From an uncultured SAR86 cluster bacterium (GTDB lineage Bacteria > Pseudomonadota > Gammaproteobacteria > Magnimaribacterales > D2472), in assembly GCA_902624425.1 (NCBI GenBank), contig CACNXK010000004.1:32547-96546 (forward strand): a stretch of DNA of 64,000 nt, given 5' to 3'. Positions 20,342 to 26,971 of this stretch are shown one piece after another. Each line of letters opens with the position of its first letter. Position 1 is the first letter of the stretch. Below the pieces are notes generated by a model. It had not been told where the DNA came from, searched no databases, and saw nothing but the letters and a program-made list of their open reading frames with translations. The translations under genes and the position numbers were made by a program.

Positions 20342-22924
20342 TTAAAAATTATATTCCAGATTTAGATTTACAAGTCTTCCACGAGGATCATGAACTCTTG
20401 TATCAAAGCTGAAATCGGGAGCATCGTACAATCTAGGAGCAGATTCATCTAGCGCATTAATTATTGCAATACCAAAATTGATATTGCCTTCATTAAGATC
20501 TATTGTTTTTTTGGCTGAGATATCAAAAACCAAAAAGGAATCAACTTTATTCTCATATCCTAGACTTGCTCCAAGACCTGTTATTGGTCTCTCATTAGTA
20601 TATCCATCTATATACCTTGTAATTAAACTGAAAAGATAATCCTTATGTTCCCAATCTATGAAAGCATTCAAGCGTTTCTTTGGAAGAGAGTGGGTGTGTG
20701 AATCATAATTAAATTTACCAACCCTGTTAATCATTTTTGAAACACCGTCTGAAGAAATTTGCGGTGTTAGGAACTCATCAAATACGGTTCCTTTAACTCT
20801 AAGGTTTATTGGTGAGTAATTTTTTAACTCAAACATATAGTCAAATTGAAAATCTGTACCGCTTATTTTTGTATTTTCCTCATTGAAATACGTTGTCGTT
20901 ACGCCAATAAGATCACCAAATTCATTTCTTGTAATACTTGGACCAAAAGGATCTTGAGTTAACAGGGCTTGAGCACTTTCAACTTCAATACGATCCTCAT
21001 AATCAACTTCCCAGTAATCGATTGAAAGCTTATAACTATCTTTTTGGAAAATTAATCCAAAATTTTGATTAGATGATGTTGAGGGTTTTAAGTCTGGATT
21101 ACCAATCGAAGCTTGCCTAACAAATACTGAGTCATCGATATCTCTCACGCTACCAAGATTAATCTGGCTTGAGAACATTTGAGCCATAGATGGAGCTGAA
21201 AATGCACTACCTCTTGAAAATCTTAACGTCAAAGATTCATTAAGGTTGTATTTCATGGATAATTTTGGATCAAATGAAGATTCGTTTTTCATTTGTTCAT
21301 AGCGTCCTGCAATTCTTATATCAAGTGCTTCAAAGAACCTCCTTTCAGCCTCAACAAAAAGCGCTTTACCATTTCTACTTTTTGATACATTTTTTCCTCC
21401 GCCAAGAAAGAAGAGGTCAGCTGTTTTGATGAGTTTGCCATCAGTATCAAATTCAGCCCGACTAACCTCATCATAAAATATATCGAGGCTCTCATTATTA
21501 ATTTGAAATCCATAAGCATATTTAATATTTTTAATTTCTGCTCTGAAAATACCATTAAGACTTAGTAGATCAGCACTTTTATTTGACACCTCAGCACCTC
21601 TTACAAAATCTATTAGTGATTGAGAATTTTGAGATGAATCAAATATATTCCACATTTCATCACCGTTAGGGCCGCCATTTCCTTGAATTGCAGCTAAGAA
21701 TCTTGAATCAATAATATCGGGTCTGTAATGAAAATTTGTGTGTTCACTTTTGGTTAATGAGATTTCAGCTTCCGTTTGATTAGCTAACTCAAAGTATGTA
21801 GTTACCCCAAAATGTTTTTGCTCAATATCTTTTGGAGAGTAAGGGGATTTATATTCAGCTCCAAGTGGTCTTCCATACCAAACAACCGGAACATTAAATG
21901 GACTTCCACCTTCACCAGGCAGAATGCTTCGGGATAGAAAAGGAAGTGCAGGATAGGAGGGTGATTGGGGATTATCATTTACATTCACATTTGAAGATAT
22001 AAAAGTGAAATTTATATCTACTAAATTATTATCTGAATAGAGGTTTATGTAATTTTTCTTATGACTTTCATCATTTACGATATTGAATCTTTCGCCATAA
22101 AGAAACCTGCAAAATGATCCATCAAGAATGCCTCCATTACTTTCACAGTTTGGATCAGGCACGAATGTTGTTTGGTTTGGATAATCTCCAGCATAAATTC
22201 CTGATTCAATAGTATCTGGGCCTAAAAGTTTAAAAGTTTTACCGAGGCCACTTAATCCAAGCTCTGCAATGCCAGGTATTTCCTTAGCTGAGAGAGGTGA
22301 CCTTTCTAATCTGTTATGCCCAACAACATAATTAATATTTCTAAATTTTCCGCCATAAAGCAATCCGATAGTGTCATCATTCTGGTCATAGTTTGAAGTA
22401 GACTGCCTTCCAGCTTTGATTCTTAAACCATCAAACTCTCGATAGGTTATAAAATTAACAACTCCGGCAATTGCATCTGAACCGTAAGTTGATGTTGCGC
22501 CTTCCTTTAAGATTTCTGTTCTCTCTAAAGCTATCTCTGGAACTATATTTATATCAATATATCCTTCGCCTTCATTTGAGGGTGTTCCAGCAAACGTATG
22601 CCTTTTAGAATTAATTAATATTAGGGTTGAGGCTTGCTCAAGCCCCCTTAAAGTTAAGGAGGCCATCCCCTGATCAACACCCTCGAGGGCATTGGATTGA
22701 AATCTTGAACCTGAACTTATATTTAGATATTTACTAATCTCTGCAACATTAGTTATATTCAGTTGGCCATATTCCTCTGAAGTAATTACTTCAATTGGAG
22801 ATGAATCATCTTCTAGTACTTTGATGAGACTACCAGTTACAACAACTTCCTCTATATCTGCTTCAATAAATTGAAACAAAAATAAATATATAGTTAAAAG
22901 AGAAAAAAAATATTTTTTGTTCAT
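20342..22924 (-). CDS. TonB-dependent receptor, substrate unknown
   Basis: Signal peptide, IEEVVVTGS TonB box, plug motif EILKEGATSTYGSDAIAGVVNFIT, C-terminal LEYNF. Confidence 0.93.
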   Translation of the reverse strand: MNKKYFFSLLTIYLFLFQFIEADIEEVVVTGSLIKVLEDDSSPIEVITSEEYGQLNITNVAEISKYLNISSGSRFQSNALEGVDQGMASLTLRGLEQASTLILINSKRHTFAGTPSNEGEGYIDINIVPEIALERTEILKEGATSTYGSDAIAGVVNFITYREFDGLRIKAGRQSTSNYDQNDDTIGLLYGGKFRNINYVVGHNRLERSPLSAKEIPGIAELGLSGLGKTFKLLGPDTIESGIYAGDYPNQTTFVPDPNCESNGGILDGSFCRFLYGERFNIVNDESHKKNYINLYSDNNLVDINFTFISSNVNVNDNPQSPSYPALPFLSRSILPGEGGSPFNVPVVWYGRPLGAEYKSPYSPKDIEQKHFGVTTYFELANQTEAEISLTKSEHTNFHYRPDIIDSRFLAAIQGNGGPNGDEMWNIFDSSQNSQSLIDFVRGAEVSNKSADLLSLNGIFRAEIKNIKYAYGFQINNESLDIFYDEVSRAEFDTDGKLIKTADLFFLGGGKNVSKSRNGKALFVEAERRFFEALDIRIAGRYEQMKNESSFDPKLSMKYNLNESLTLRFSRGSAFSAPSMAQMFSSQINLGSVRDIDDSVFVRQASIGNPDLKPSTSSNQNFGLIFQKDSYKLSIDYWEVDYEDRIEVESAQALLTQDPFGPSITRNEFGDLIGVTTTYFNEENTKISGTDFQFDYMFELKNYSPINLRVKGTVFDEFLTPQISSDGVSKMINRVGKFNYDSHTHSLPKKRLNAFIDWEHKDYLFSLITRYIDGYTNERPITGLGASLGYENKVDSFLVFDISAKKTIDLNEGNINFGIAIINALDESAPRLYDAPDFSFDTRVHDPRGRLVNLNLEYNF

Positions 22925-22975
22925 TAAAATTGTTTGAATATGAGCATTATAGGTTTAGAAATTTATTTTATAAAT

Positions 22976-23001
22976 AAAAAAGCCCCTAAAAAGGGGCTTT
23001 T
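22976..23001. terminator. intrinsic terminator after the His-rich receptor (bidirectional shape)
   Basis: AAAAAAGCCCCT-AAAA-AGGGGCTTTT. Confidence 0.85.
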
Positions 23002-23017
23002 AATTAATGCTTAGATC

Positions 23018-25282
23018 TTAAAAAGTTAAGTTAAATCTTATTCCATAATTCCTTCCAGGAAGAGGAACTTGATTTTTAACAAATGATGAATGATTTCTTG
23101 CAACTTCGTCTAGAAGATTATTTGCAAAAACAGAAACCCTAAGAGAGTTACCATTTAAATCAAATGTTTTTACAAGTTTCGTGTCTAACATTTGATACCC
23201 CATTGTTGGAGTCTCTTCTTCAGCCACATCCGTTTGATCATCAACATCTTTAAAACTTAGATCAAAGAGGTAATCGTTAGCAAAATATTTTACTGAATAA
23301 ATATTTCTTGCTGGGCTTAGTCTTGGAATGTTCATTCCATCAGCTAGAGAGCCATTAACAACATCTCTTCCAAAAGAAACCTCTAAATCACCGTTATCAA
23401 GGTTAAAGATTCTCCCAATTTCAAGCTCATATCCATCCAACTCAGCATTTTGTTGCATGTAATTTGCTTCAATTAATCCTTCAGCATGACCATGCTCATC
23501 ATGATCATCATCTTCACTCATAGCTCCCATGTGATCATCGTGATCATCTTCATCATGAATATCCATCAGGTAAACATAATTATCAACATCATTTCTAAAT
23601 ATTGTTGCCGAAGCAAAGAAGTTATCGCTCGAATAGCTTAGAGCAATATCGATGTTATTAGATGTCTCAGTTGCTAGATTTACATCTCCAGTCTCAAATC
23701 TGCCTGTTGCCAAGTGAGGACCATTCATGAAAAGCTCTACAACTGATGGAGCTCTCTCAACGCTTGAATAAGCAAAATTTAGATCCCAATTATCATTGAT
23801 TGGTCTACATAGGTCGATTGCAAAGCTTAAATTGTTTGAGCTAAAGGAATAGTTTTCTGTTTCTTCCTCTTCTTCGTGCTCATCATGATCTTCGTCTTCA
23901 TCATGGTGATCTTCTTCATGATGACCAGTTACAGAACCATTAGTATCTATTTGGTCATAACGAATACCAAAACTTAACTCAAATAGATCAAAATCTCTTC
24001 TTGCAAAATAACCAAGCGTTAATTCTTCTCTATCAGCAGGGTTCATAAAAGCTTCTTCGCCAATTATTGAGACTGTTTCATCAGAAATATTTAAAGAAAC
24101 TTTTTGAGTCATTAGATCATTTGATAAATCAAAAATCATTCCATACTCTGAAGAATCATTTGTGAAAGTAGTTGGACCTTCTTCACCATGTCCATGATCA
24201 TCATGATCTTCATCGCTATGATCTTCATCACCATGCTCTTCCTCAGCATGCTGTTCAGTATGGGAATAATCTGAGTCCTGAAGGAAAAAGTCTAAGTTTT
24301 TAATTAGATCGTTATCTACTGCTACTGAACCTCGAATAGTGAACTTATCAGAGTCAGTGTTTGAGAAGATTCTCTCTTCTTCATGCTCATCATGACCTTC
24401 TTCTTCATCACCGTGTTCATCTCCATGATCATCATGTCCTTCATGACCTTCTCCATGATATGGCACTCCAAAAAGACTTTCTGAACTTGAAAAGGAAAGA
24501 CCTACATATCCCCAATCTGCAACCTTAGAAACACCAAATCTTGTTGCTTCTTGTGCAGAGTCAGAATTTTCAAGGAATCCCATATCTTCTTCATGTTCAT
24601 CATGATCTCCATCCTCATCATGATCTTCATCTTCATCATGATGTTCTTCCTCATGAAGAATTGCACCATCTGGAACATCATAATTTCCAAAAGAAGAATC
24701 ACTGTATGAGAAATACACATTCAATCCACCCAAGTTATCCTTAACAGAAAAACTTTGAGCATCTCCAGAATTTACAGATTGTGTCTCAAGACCTAACTTT
24801 AATACTCTATCAACAACATCTTCCATTGCGATTGTGTTATCAACAATGTTCACAATTCCGCCTGTAACACCATTGGCATATAACAATGAGGACGGACCGC
24901 GGACAACTTCTATTTGCTGAATATCACTAAGATCAACTTCATTTTTATGATCAGCACCGATTCCAGCAACATCCCTGTTTACTAGACCATTAGTTAAGAT
25001 TTTAACTCTTGAGCCACTTAGACCTCTGATTATTGGTTGACCAACTGCTGATCCATAATCTGCAGACGATACACCAACCAAGGAATCCAAAGCTTCACCT
25101 AAACTAACAGTTCCCAAATCAGAAATATCAGAACCGCTTAAGATATGAAGCGGATCTCCAATTTCATCCTCAGTAACATTTAGTAGCGAGGCTTGAACTA
25201 CAACCTCTTCGACTTCATCCGAATGTATGAAGTTTGCTGAGAAAATACCTAGCATTGCTAGTATTAATAATTTATTTTTCAT
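23018..25282 (-). CDS. His/acidic-rich TonB-dependent receptor, ZnuD-like metal uptake
   Basis: Signal peptide, VEEVVVQA, GQPIIRGLSGSRV, EVVRGPSSLLY, ELFMNGPHLATGRFETG, ARNHSSFVK..PLPGRN..F; five H/E/D-rich inserts. Confidence 0.9.
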   Translation of the reverse strand: MKNKLLILAMLGIFSANFIHSDEVEEVVVQASLLNVTEDEIGDPLHILSGSDISDLGTVSLGEALDSLVGVSSADYGSAVGQPIIRGLSGSRVKILTNGLVNRDVAGIGADHKNEVDLSDIQQIEVVRGPSSLLYANGVTGGIVNIVDNTIAMEDVVDRVLKLGLETQSVNSGDAQSFSVKDNLGGLNVYFSYSDSSFGNYDVPDGAILHEEEHHDEDEDHDEDGDHDEHEEDMGFLENSDSAQEATRFGVSKVADWGYVGLSFSSSESLFGVPYHGEGHEGHDDHGDEHGDEEEGHDEHEEERIFSNTDSDKFTIRGSVAVDNDLIKNLDFFLQDSDYSHTEQHAEEEHGDEDHSDEDHDDHGHGEEGPTTFTNDSSEYGMIFDLSNDLMTQKVSLNISDETVSIIGEEAFMNPADREELTLGYFARRDFDLFELSFGIRYDQIDTNGSVTGHHEEDHHDEDEDHDEHEEEEETENYSFSSNNLSFAIDLCRPINDNWDLNFAYSSVERAPSVVELFMNGPHLATGRFETGDVNLATETSNNIDIALSYSSDNFFASATIFRNDVDNYVYLMDIHDEDDHDDHMGAMSEDDDHDEHGHAEGLIEANYMQQNAELDGYELEIGRIFNLDNGDLEVSFGRDVVNGSLADGMNIPRLSPARNIYSVKYFANDYLFDLSFKDVDDQTDVAEEETPTMGYQMLDTKLVKTFDLNGNSLRVSVFANNLLDEVARNHSSFVKNQVPLPGRNYGIRFNLTF

Positions 25283-25286
25283 GTTT

Positions 25287-25338
25287 ACTCCTAAAAATTT
25301 AAAATTTAAAAATCAAAAAATTAAATTTTTGGTGGAGC
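25287..25338 (-). promoter_or_regulatory. mRNA hairpin able to sequester the receptor's Shine-Dalgarno (AGGAG) using the leader's Ala-Pro-Pro-Lys-Ile-stop codons
   Basis: mRNA reads GCUCC-ACC-AAAAAUUUAA [18 nt] UUAAAUUUUU-A-GGAGU AAAC AUG. Confidence 0.65.
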
Positions 25339-25605
25339 TCTCTGATGAAAATTTTTAGATATAGATTGGTCGGTTAGACTTAATAGTTCTGAGTCTTCAA
25401 TATCAAAATCTATAAAAGTTATATTTGTCTTAGAATTTACTAAGTTTTGTGATTGATTTTCTTCGCAATAATCGCAATCGATTTCAATAGCTTCATCATG
25501 TATTTCAAAAGCTTCCGCAATATGTTGTATTTCATGAGAAGTAGCTAGGGCAAGAAATAAAAGCCCAAGCAAAAAAGGTGTTTTATTTTTAAAATCAGTG
25601 ATCAT
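25321..25605 (-). CDS. putative metal-sensing arrest/leader peptide (DUF2946/CruR-like: TM + His/CxxC + RAPP)
   Basis: PFLLGLLFLALATS hydrophobic stretch, H24xxxH28, H36, C44DYC47, R89APP92; ends 38 nt before the receptor ATG. Confidence 0.8.
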   Translation of the reverse strand: MITDFKNKTPFLLGLLFLALATSHEIQHIAEAFEIHDEAIEIDCDYCEENQSQNLVNSKTNITFIDFDIEDSELLSLTDQSISKNFHQRAPPKI

Positions 25606-26653
25606 GTTTGAGACATACTAAACCATTAATAGAACCACTCGCAAGGTCTTTAATAGTTTTATCAGCTTCTGAAACATTTCTTGCTTCAACAGGAACGGGA
25701 TCAATCTTTCCAGACTTAACTAAATCCATCAGCTCACCCATCTCAGCTAAGCTTCCAACATATGTTCCAGTTAGCGTTCTTGCGGTTAATGTAACCAGAG
25801 GTAATTGAAGAGTAGTTTGGCCGCCAAGGAGTCCTACTAATACGTAAGTGCCGCCTCTTACTAGACCAAAAAGACCATAAGCAAATTCAAAAGCTGGAGC
25901 TGCTCCAACAAAATCAATAACGCTTTTAGCTCCTCCGCCAGTGATTTCAAATATCTTCATTGCAGCATCTTCATCATTAGAGTTTATGGCTGCTGAGGCT
26001 CCTGCTTCTTTCGCAATAGCCAGCTTCTCATCATCGATATCAACAACAATTGGATTAATATCATAAACAGCTTTTAATATTTTCAATGACAATAAACCCA
26101 TCCCTCCAGCGCCAACAACCACAACTGATTTTTGACCCTCAACAAGATTAGCTTTTTTTATAGCGCTGTAAGCAGTTAATCCTCTACAAGCATAACTTCC
26201 TGCAAGATTATCGTGAGTATCTCCAGCATCAAAAAGATATTTTTTATCAGGTACCAAGACATATTCACCATATCCTCCATCTCTTGTGATACCGATATTC
26301 CTGTTTGTTGTAATTCCACAATAATGCTCGTTGCCAATATGACAAAGTTCACAATCACTGCATCCAATCCATGGGTATACTACGTATTTTTTGCCGATCT
26401 CAACATCGCTAACACTTTCGCCAAGCTCAACAACTTCTCCAAAGACTTCATGACCCATAGCAAGATCTTTGGCAGGAGTAGGTAGTTTGGCACCACCACC
26501 TAAATCAAAGAAACCCTCATATATATGAACATCCGAATGACAGACTCCACATGAAACTGTTTTAACAAGAATTTCTTCACCCACTGGAATAGGCTTTTCA
26601 ATTTCAACCTGCTTTATAGGTTTACCATTCTCTATGATTTTGTATGACTTCAT
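25595..26653 (-). CDS. zinc-dependent alcohol dehydrogenase (MDR family)
   Basis: CGVCHSD, GHEVFG, structural Zn site CSDCELC...C, GAGGMG. Confidence 0.93.
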   Translation of the reverse strand: MKSYKIIENGKPIKQVEIEKPIPVGEEILVKTVSCGVCHSDVHIYEGFFDLGGGAKLPTPAKDLAMGHEVFGEVVELGESVSDVEIGKKYVVYPWIGCSDCELCHIGNEHYCGITTNRNIGITRDGGYGEYVLVPDKKYLFDAGDTHDNLAGSYACRGLTAYSAIKKANLVEGQKSVVVVGAGGMGLLSLKILKAVYDINPIVVDIDDEKLAIAKEAGASAAINSNDEDAAMKIFEITGGGAKSVIDFVGAAPAFEFAYGLFGLVRGGTYVLVGLLGGQTTLQLPLVTLTARTLTGTYVGSLAEMGELMDLVKSGKIDPVPVEARNVSEADKTIKDLASGSINGLVCLKHDH

Positions 26654-26656
26654 GAT

Positions 26657-26896
26657 TTATTTTGAAACTTTGTATTTAATTATTGTACTATTTTTTATAT
26701 CTTCCCATCGCTTTTTTTCGGTTAGATAGCACAAGATTGAATCAGAATCTTCACTTTGATTAAAGGAGTACCCCTCTGGTATTAAGTTTTTATTAAGAGA
26801 GCATTTTTCAGTAATTGTCCGTCCGCTTTTTAGAGACTTGAAGGTAATTTCAACTTCTGCAGATTCTAATAGTTTTTTAAGATCTTTTATCTCCAT
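26657..26896 (-). CDS. small hypothetical protein, possible SH3/Sm-like beta-barrel (WYL_2-like)
   Basis: Likely start MEIKDLKKLL; pattern VEITFKSLKSGR..KCSL..IP...ILCY..EKKRWEDI. Confidence 0.6.
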   Translation of the reverse strand: MEIKDLKKLLESAEVEITFKSLKSGRTITEKCSLNKNLIPEGYSFNQSEDSDSILCYLTEKKRWEDIKNSTIIKYKVSK

Positions 26897-26971
26897 TTGG
26901 TTGCATTCTAACTTAGTGATGGAAAGTTTTGTTAAGTTTATTTTCAAATATTATTGGATTAAGATAGAAAC

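Follow-up and report, generated by a model that had tools for sequence, protein, structure and literature searches.

A conserved leader peptide ending in RAPP in front of a ZnuD-like receptor gene of SAR86 bacteria: probably a metal-sensing arrest leader, with a predicted switch at the receptor ribosome-binding site

The window analysed here is a 64,000-nucleotide stretch from an uncultured SAR86 cluster bacterium, and the element in question is a short open reading frame (ORF), the leader, lying directly in front of a gene for a TonB-dependent receptor. All features given below are on the minus strand. The leader ORF (25321..25605, stop codon included) starts with ATG, ends with TAA and encodes 94 residues; its ATG lies within the last codons of a gene for a Zn-type alcohol dehydrogenase (25595..26653), giving an 11-nt overlap with the stop of that gene. 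Inspection of the sequence shows a signal-peptide-like N-terminus at residues 1–21 (25543..25605), with K6 and K8, a hydrophobic segment F11–A21 and A-L-A at positions 19–21. It is followed by a stretch rich in His, Asp and Glu (residues 24–43; 25477..25536) that contains H24-x3-H28 and H36, by C44-D-Y-C47 (25465..25476), and by a polar linker of 41 residues (residues 48–88; 25342..25464) whose length is kept but whose sequence is poorly conserved. The presumed arrest site is R89-A-P-P (25330..25341; codons AGA GCT CCA CCA), after which only K-I-stop remains; within these codons, GCUCC (25334–25338) is predicted to pair as an anti-Shine-Dalgarno arm. Between the leader stop and the receptor ATG lies an A/U-rich spacer of 38 nt (25283..25320), the 5' part of which closes the inner helix of a predicted hairpin. 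The first-pass annotation of this DNA had listed the hydrophobic segment, the His residues, C44-D-Y-C47, the linker, the RAPP ending and the 38-nt gap, and each particular that could be checked proved correct; the minus strand and the overlap with the dehydrogenase gene had gone unstated.

An AlphaFold2 model of the leader based on 110 sequences (mean pLDDT, the model's confidence score, 67.9) was confident only for a helix at residues 9–33, and the linker (pLDDT 54–69) had no secondary structure. The absence of a predicted fold beyond the N-terminal helix is as expected of a nascent-chain sensor. The geometry of a Cys2His2 site in the same model was dropped, since the N-terminal helix alone is confident.

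The receptor gene (23018..25282) encodes 754 residues with TonB Plug and barrel domains and five His/Asp/Glu-rich stretches. The best of 26 NCBIfam families was ZnuD (NF038289), at 202 bits, the next model scoring 111.6 bits; haem- and transferrin-type models gave about 110 bits and the copper-receptor model 45.6. The best solved relative was again ZnuD (4rdr, E = 1.9e-36; next, 1e-8), and D111-H112 and H523 of the receptor align with residues D113-H114 and H513 of chain 4rdr_A. The high-affinity Zn ligands of ZnuD are Asp-99, His-100 and Glu-340, together with His-499 (PMC4557270); with a single numbering offset of 14, D111-H112 and H523 would thus occupy three of the four ligand positions. 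The Asp-His pair is conserved in all 51 distinct receptor orthologues, and at least one His/Asp/Glu run occurs in 49 of the 51, in the parts of the sequence covered. The receptor therefore looks ZnuD-like and not copper-type, in line with the first-pass annotation. On that offset, the plug-loop Asp-His and the barrel His-499 of ZnuD of Neisseria meningitidis align with identical residues in it, and like ZnuD it has His/Asp/Glu-rich surface stretches; unlike ZnuD, it has five acidic His-rich stretches.

Six-frame stop-to-stop frames of at least 60 aa (2838 frames, 466243 residues) from the entire 963-kb genome contain a single R[AG]PP, the one in the leader ORF. This count is weak evidence by itself, about 1–2 occurrences being expected from a rough composition estimate, and it is conservation that decides. 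When the single peptide was used as a query, 28 of the 41 related genomes gave relatives (E ≤ 10), and 20 loci were returned. All 20 had RAPP with a tail of 1–4 residues and a receptor ORF starting 37–48 nt downstream; CxxC was present in 19 (locus L014 has C-E-Y-A), and in all 19 the spacer from Cys to RAPP was 40 or 41 residues. A profile built from 16 leader members (A1) was then used for an order-wide search and matched 202 of the 266 genomes of the order, mostly once per genome; matches were found in 50 of the 57 genomes with a completeness of 90% or more, and in 21 of 22 genera. A receptor ORF followed 37–54 nt after the leader in 60 of 60 scored loci, a figure that describes adjacency and not frequency, as the loci were chosen by their leader match. 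The proposal made at first pass, that RAPP, the Cys motif and their spacing should be conserved in front of orthologous receptors, was thus borne out, in four families of the order.

A library of 1.84 billion protein cluster representatives yielded 162 matches at E ≤ 0.001, nearly all of about 90 aa. Among the best 150 of these, 96 had both R[AG]PP and CxxC, with a tail of 1–6 residues between RAPP and the stop; 35 had CxxC only, mostly truncated reads or fusions to adapter-like tails, 10 had RAPP without the second Cys, and 9 had neither. Four proteins (P0134, P0161, P0216 and P0267) are leader fragments fused to a LLYTSPSPRD tail that looks like a translated sequencing adapter, as if chimeric reads had entered the public protein collection. 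In 110 complete representatives, picked with the first Cys as a required anchor, the spacer was 41 residues in 65 cases, 40 in 22, 42 in 8, 43 in 5 and 44 in 10, and the arrest motif was RAPP in 103, QAPP in 4, RGPP in 2 and RTPP in 1. Of these representatives, 101 have the second Cys, and 85% have Glu or Asp immediately before the Cys; over the 25 residues preceding the Cys, His averaged 3.1 and Met 0.1. The first Cys is invariant in the alignments A1 and A3, Asp or Glu replaces the first His in many leaders, and the C-terminal consensus is [FY]-x-S-R-A-P-P-K-I. All four Ala, all four Pro and three Arg codons are in use at RAPP across loci; this synonymous variation implies that selection acts on the peptide. 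By this comparison the leader ORF is conserved beyond chance.

Leaders of this general kind have been described. ORFs with RAPP or RGPP, nearly all with signal sequences, are reported upstream of TonB receptor genes throughout Gram-negative bacteria in the passages cited here from Fujiwara et al. 2025 (PMC12992588). Our leader fits that class and is not new as a class; the same passages make no mention of zinc, of ZnuD-type receptors, of the lineage studied here or of pairing between RAPP codons and a Shine-Dalgarno sequence (SD). Among the matches listed, titles and abstracts on ZnuD plus RAPP, or on SAR86 plus TonB-dependent plus zinc, described no such leader, supplementary lists being outside that coverage.

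The closest characterised parallel is CruR (Bp2923) of Bordetella pertussis, a DUF2946 (PF11162) protein in which CXXC, 45 residues and RAPP follow one another. According to the sections cited, copper relieves the CruR arrest, which leads to Rho termination in a 162-nt spacer (PMC9426467), and toeprinting placed the two prolines of the in vitro arrest in the P and A sites (PMC12992588). Like CruR, the leader is a small first gene before a TonB-dependent transporter and has a signal-peptide-like N-terminus, CxxC, a linker of fixed length and a C-terminal RAPP a few residues before its stop; both would follow the same logic, in which metal shuts off the gene for its own uptake (PMC9426467, in the part cited). 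Unlike CruR, it has about 90 residues instead of 145, a His/acid cluster preceding the Cys, a ZnuD-like receptor, a 37–54-nt instead of a 162-nt spacer, a predicted mechanism of SD unmasking instead of Rho termination, and an A+T-rich genome around it.

The first-pass annotation had called the architecture that of DUF2946 leaders and proposed a hidden Markov model search with that family. The architecture (signal, CxxC and RAPP before a TonB receptor) stood, whereas formal membership of the family did not. PF11162 (gathering score 23.7 bits) gave no match for the window ORF at E ≤ 1, for any of the 16 leader members at E ≤ 10, or anywhere in the window's genome, in searches where the HMMER filters drop most matches above E of about 0.1. 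The Cys-to-RAPP spacing differs as well, with a mode of 41 (40–44) in the leader family versus 45 (43–47) in 22 bona fide DUF2946 members, one artefactual value (L076) aside. Profile–profile comparison with these 22 gave motif-sized matches only, with probabilities of 15% over 14 columns around CxxC and 50% over 15 columns around RAPP. For two borderline DUF2946 members (21.2 and 23.4 bits) the probabilities were 91% (82 columns) and 93.5% (56 columns), and because this alignment runs end to end, distant common descent with DUF2946-like leaders is plausible.

The two borderline leaders (L024:1402-1707 and L027:1495-1782), from other genomes of the class, are the closest relatives of the leader family outside it. 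They have 96–102 aa, with H-x3-H or HH, CxxC, 43–45 residues and RAPP, and precede proteins of about 420 aa, one with weak porin-like Pfam matches and the other with none. DUF2946 itself was tallied in 62 of 401 genomes, a count that includes one flagged as unpublished (G837) and on which no claim rests. A match of the leader to PyrI_C in the Pfam and NCBIfam scans (18.7 bits versus 23.4) was set aside as sub-threshold noise and not homology.

A second parallel is CutF of Rhodobacter capsulatus, which has CxxxC and a Pro-rich end and which, on stalling, melts a stem-loop that covers the ribosome-binding site of cutO, according to the parts cited of PMC9973294 and bioRxiv 10.1101/2025.02.05.636593. 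The former also sorts CutF-like proteins into 29 sequence clusters, among them clusters that contain His and clusters linked to Ni/Co genes. Our leader would resemble CutF in being an exported nascent metal sensor with a stem-loop over a ribosome-binding site, and in CutF, as described there, the metal site and the stall site are about 45 residues apart. Unlike the leader, CutF ends in a sequence other than RAPP and controls a detoxifying oxidase that copper switches on; the leader precedes an uptake receptor, for which the opposite polarity is expected, and its predicted anti-SD arm consists of the arrest codons themselves. In view of these comparisons, the leader probably belongs to a conserved kind of metal-sensing arrest peptide that is distinct from CruR in spacing, receptor class and predicted mechanism.

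The predicted mechanism comes from the mRNA. In SecM–secA and MifM–yidC2, a ribosome arrested near the end of the leader opens a hairpin hiding the downstream SD. Those leaders sense export or insertion, not metal, and the genes downstream encode localisation machinery. Arrest leaders such as SecM, VemP and MifM are described as controlling the genes behind them, in many cases by unfolding a stem-loop that covers an SD (PMC9973294, in the part cited). At our locus, the minimum free energy (MFE) fold contains a hairpin (25276..25351) predicted to bury both the receptor SD (GGAGU, 25287–25291) and the start codon (25280–25282): GCUCC of the Ala-Pro codons pairs with GGAGU, and UUUUCAU pairs with the start codon region. 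The MFE of 25260–25380 is –17.4 kcal/mol (z = –2.41), a value that 4 of 200 shuffled sequences equalled. None of the other GGAG-type SDs in a genome-wide set of 83 is predicted to be as occluded as that of the receptor, whose probability of being unpaired is 0.0006 versus a median of 0.40; the set comprised frames of at least 200 residues whose ATG is preceded by a GGAG-type SD at 5–17 nt. That only 83 long frames have GGAG indicates, as a side observation, that strong SDs seem uncommon in this genome, and the receptor has one.

The pairing recurs across related loci. In the predicted folds of 50 distinct loci, pairing between the SD and the RAPP codons had P > 0.5 at 45, and the probability that the SD is unpaired was under 0.1 at 39. 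When the footprint of a ribosome at the arrest site (modelled as –12 to +15 around the first Pro codon) was forced open, the median probability that the SD is unpaired rose from 0.001 to 0.325 in the same 50 loci; the edge of the footprint lies 26–41 nt from GGAG, leaving space for an initiating subunit. Codon choice and SD also vary together. Across 51 genomes, CCU as the first Pro codon went with GGAGG in 18 of 18 cases (10 genera); GCU for Ala in the absence of CCU went with GGAGU in 19 of 28 (5 genera) and with GGAGG in 9 (2 genera); and with neither CCU nor GCU the SD was GGAGA in 4 of 5. Both matched codon–SD types are found within genus g7. A search of Rfam returned nothing at the leader or the hairpin, only six weak matches, all at 22943–23557 and below the gathering scores.

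These data, comparative or predicted in kind, lead us to the following proposal. A ribosome translating the leader would stall when its P and A sites hold the two RAPP Pro codons, a position taken from the CruR toeprinting. In the free mRNA, the receptor SD and start codon would be buried in the predicted hairpin, the 5' arm of which is the RAPP-coding stretch. The stalled ribosome would cover this arm, the SD beyond its edge would open, and the receptor would be translated. At the stall, C44–C47 would be 44–47 residues from the P-site residue at the peptidyl-transferase centre and the His cluster 55–67 residues from it, that is, at or just beyond the tunnel exit. Plentiful metal would bind the His/Asp/Glu–Cys site of the nascent chain, and folding or pulling would free the arrest; termination would then occur three codons on, the hairpin would re-form and receptor synthesis would cease. 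The polarity is that of CruR, which is to be expected since an uptake gene lies downstream: stall and receptor on without metal, off with metal bound.

We are fairly confident that the ORF is a cis-acting regulatory arrest leader. With somewhat less assurance, we favour SD unmasking, as modelled, as its mode of action, and the combination of a CruR/CutF-like metal-sensing arrest leader with SD unmasking is likewise the reading we think reasonably probable. The polarity, with metal relieving the stall, is only slightly favoured, and zinc as the sensed metal stands at about even chances.

Several observations count against this proposal, or against parts of it. Synonymous recoding of the window locus, weighted by codon usage, gave equal or better pairing with a probability of 0.44; over 60 rows, P was at most 0.1 in nine and above 0.5 in eight. 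The recoding test is weak, and CUCC readily turns up where an A+T-rich genome encodes Ala-Pro-Pro; since the test is not significant for most loci, support for the pairing rests on the occlusion rank and the covariation. Five of the 50 distinct loci (L014, L057, L064, L065 and L070) lack pairing between SD and RAPP codons, genera g16 and g221 have no anti-SD, and the genomes are related, so that counts of loci overstate their independence. As for the peptide, the second Cys is replaced (by A, F, N, S, Y, H or T) in L014, L051, L052, L058, L059, L066 and 9 of the 110 complete representatives, with the first Cys, the spacing and RAPP kept, which means that a two-Cys site is not essential everywhere. 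Leaders of genus g9 (L053 and L054; proteins P0174, P0175, P0200 and P0250) end in S-Q-A-P-P-K-I, and the Arg of RAPP is required for CruR arrest (PMC9426467, in the part cited); in these QAPP leaders the Cys motif and the spacing are retained, as is the pairing with the SD. The polarity is argued from uptake-gene logic only, and that of CutF is the opposite. The receptor score of 202 bits is far under the curated ZnuD cut-off of 950, the 14-residue offset behind the ligand assignment is itself deduced, Glu-340 of ZnuD falls outside the aligned parts, and a plug His plus a barrel His may be common to haem receptors too. Finally, no ZnuA-type binding protein was found in the window's genome, which is 78.5% complete.

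Further points of the same kind favour the idea that the leader senses copper (or nickel or cobalt) and that the receptor imports that metal. CxxC is a classic Cu(I) motif. It is what senses copper in CruR, and DUF2946 leaders are found in the company of SCO genes, as stated in the sections cited of PMC9426467; in genera g16 and g221, a gene of the copper chaperone family SCO1/SenC lies 20–21 nt upstream of the leader. His-rich CutF-like clusters are associated with Ni/Co genes (PMC9973294, in the part cited), and His/Asp/Glu loops are not metal-specific. We nevertheless regard copper, nickel or cobalt as unlikely. The receptor scores 202 bits with ZnuD versus 45.6 with the copper-receptor model, whose cut-off is exceeded by four of the eight receptors that follow bona fide DUF2946 leaders, and the presumed ZnuD ligand positions are kept. 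In addition, many leaders have Asp or Glu for the first His, Met is almost absent before the Cys, and in most genera the upstream neighbour is unrelated to metals.

Alternatively, the leader might arrest ribosomes and work as CruR does, the stalled ribosome blocking Rho and its release permitting termination before the receptor gene, with the hairpin incidental. CruR, which relies on Rho, is the one RAPP leader in front of a TonB receptor that has been characterised (PMC9426467, in the part cited). Rho is present in the window's genome. The spacer, however, is 37–54 nt here versus 162 nt in CruR, and in the window it holds a single C. A C-poor spacer is a poor loading site for Rho. Moreover, this mechanism gives neither the pairing of SD and RAPP codons nor its covariation any role, and we consider it improbable.

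More doubtful still is the notion that the product of the ORF is secreted to the periplasm as a metal-binding peptide that partners or chaperones the receptor, in which RAPP merely slows translation or is incidental and the receptor is expressed by ordinary translational coupling. A signal-peptide-like N-terminus with an A-x-A site, conserved metal-ligand residues and a fixed position next to the receptor would all suit such a product. However, RAPP is invariant and held within 1–6 residues of the stop (among the best 150 representatives, in the 96 with both R[AG]PP and CxxC), a linker conserved in length but variable in sequence is sensible only relative to the ribosome, and the mature part has no predicted fold. 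The products of CutF and CruR went undetected in cells (PMC9426467 and PMC9973294), and RAPP is a strong arrest motif, refractory to elongation factor P and avoided by proteomes (PMC12992588), as far as the cited parts of these papers go. A SecM-like monitor of Sec export alone, freed by translocon pulling with no metal sensed, would share the architecture of a signal peptide plus a C-terminal arrest motif (PMC7897499 and PMC10987492, in the parts cited), but we think it very improbable, given that the downstream gene encodes a metal receptor and not a Sec or YidC component, and that the His/Cys cluster lies at a fixed distance from RAPP.

With regard to the genomic setting, the gene upstream of the leader varies by genus: Zn-type or Fe-type alcohol dehydrogenase, purple acid phosphatase, a DsbA-like protein, Rieske oxygenase, hydrolases, SCO1/SenC or a tRNA. 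The conserved unit is therefore the leader plus the receptor. In genera g1, g3, g4 and g6, the Zn-type dehydrogenase ends between 21 nt before and 29 nt after the leader start (upstream regions of L001–L070), and in g5 and g2 an Fe-type dehydrogenase occupies the upstream position. In the window no obvious SD precedes the leader, which may therefore be translated by coupling to the upstream gene. A promoter scan found no promoter-like site directly upstream of the leader (8 sites versus 17 in shuffled sequences). After the receptor stop, a terminator-like hairpin (22978..23001; 10 pairs, 5 of them G-C, then a T run; a consensus match only) likely marks the end of the unit.

RNA-library contigs from four runs of one study cover the receptor, the leader and the dehydrogenase gene, and one of them bridges 25140–26800. 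Such contigs cannot show a transcript, its ends or its level, DNA may be present in the libraries, and the contigs mean only that the region was seen in RNA libraries; uncovered bins (22934–23201, and 25212–25345 in three runs) carry no weight.

Two further reading frames lie nearby. Downstream lies a second TonB-dependent receptor of 860 aa (20342–22924), without a leader of the RAPP kind and separated from the first by the terminator-like hairpin and a promoter-like site (22946–23001). Directly upstream of the dehydrogenase gene is a 96-aa ORF (26657–26947) with no Pfam match.

Known znuD genes are Zur-regulated. Zur-regulated receptors have also been described in Caulobacter (PMC4176598). 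In this respect, too, our receptor differs from ZnuD: no Zur was found, in that most genomes of the order have no second Fur-family gene, other zinc regulators not having been searched for. The genomes surveyed were 58, namely those of the order that are at least 90% complete plus the window's genome. One Fur-family gene over the cut-off was present in 55 of them, a second occurred only in three genomes of genus g8, and none was found in the 78.5%-complete window genome. All three Fur-family proteins that were tested are Fur equivalogs, with 165–183 bits (cut-off 146) against 25.9 for the Zur model (cut-off 167). By eye, no shared palindrome resembling a Fur or Zur operator was seen in the 160 nt upstream at 24 loci, where no formal motif search was made. 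The first-pass wording of a regulator-free sensor thus went too far, Fur being present in the order and Rho in the genome.

Metal-sensing arrest peptides have so far been known for copper only (CruR and CutF). A zinc-type leader, if true, would extend nascent-peptide metal sensing to other metals, its distinguishing features being the spacing, the site of two Cys with His or acidic residues, the ZnuD-like receptor and the direct unmasking of the ribosome-binding site. We entertain, tentatively and at less than even chances, the stronger view that it is the first zinc-sensing nascent peptide and the sole zinc-responsive regulator of an abundant, streamlined marine lineage with Fur and no Zur, its arrest codons doubling as the anti-SD arm in an element of about 330 nt that works without a trans-acting protein. 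Being small and self-contained, the element is testable in E. coli or in a cell-free system. A unit of this type, with zinc as the most likely metal, would give a streamlined marine lineage devoid of Zur post-transcriptional control over its zinc receptor, and would, if true, explain how the level of a costly receptor is set in genomes of about 1 Mb. Since most genomes of the order carry the unit, and marine RNA libraries contain its DNA, the state of the unit could serve to read out zinc limitation in the sea.

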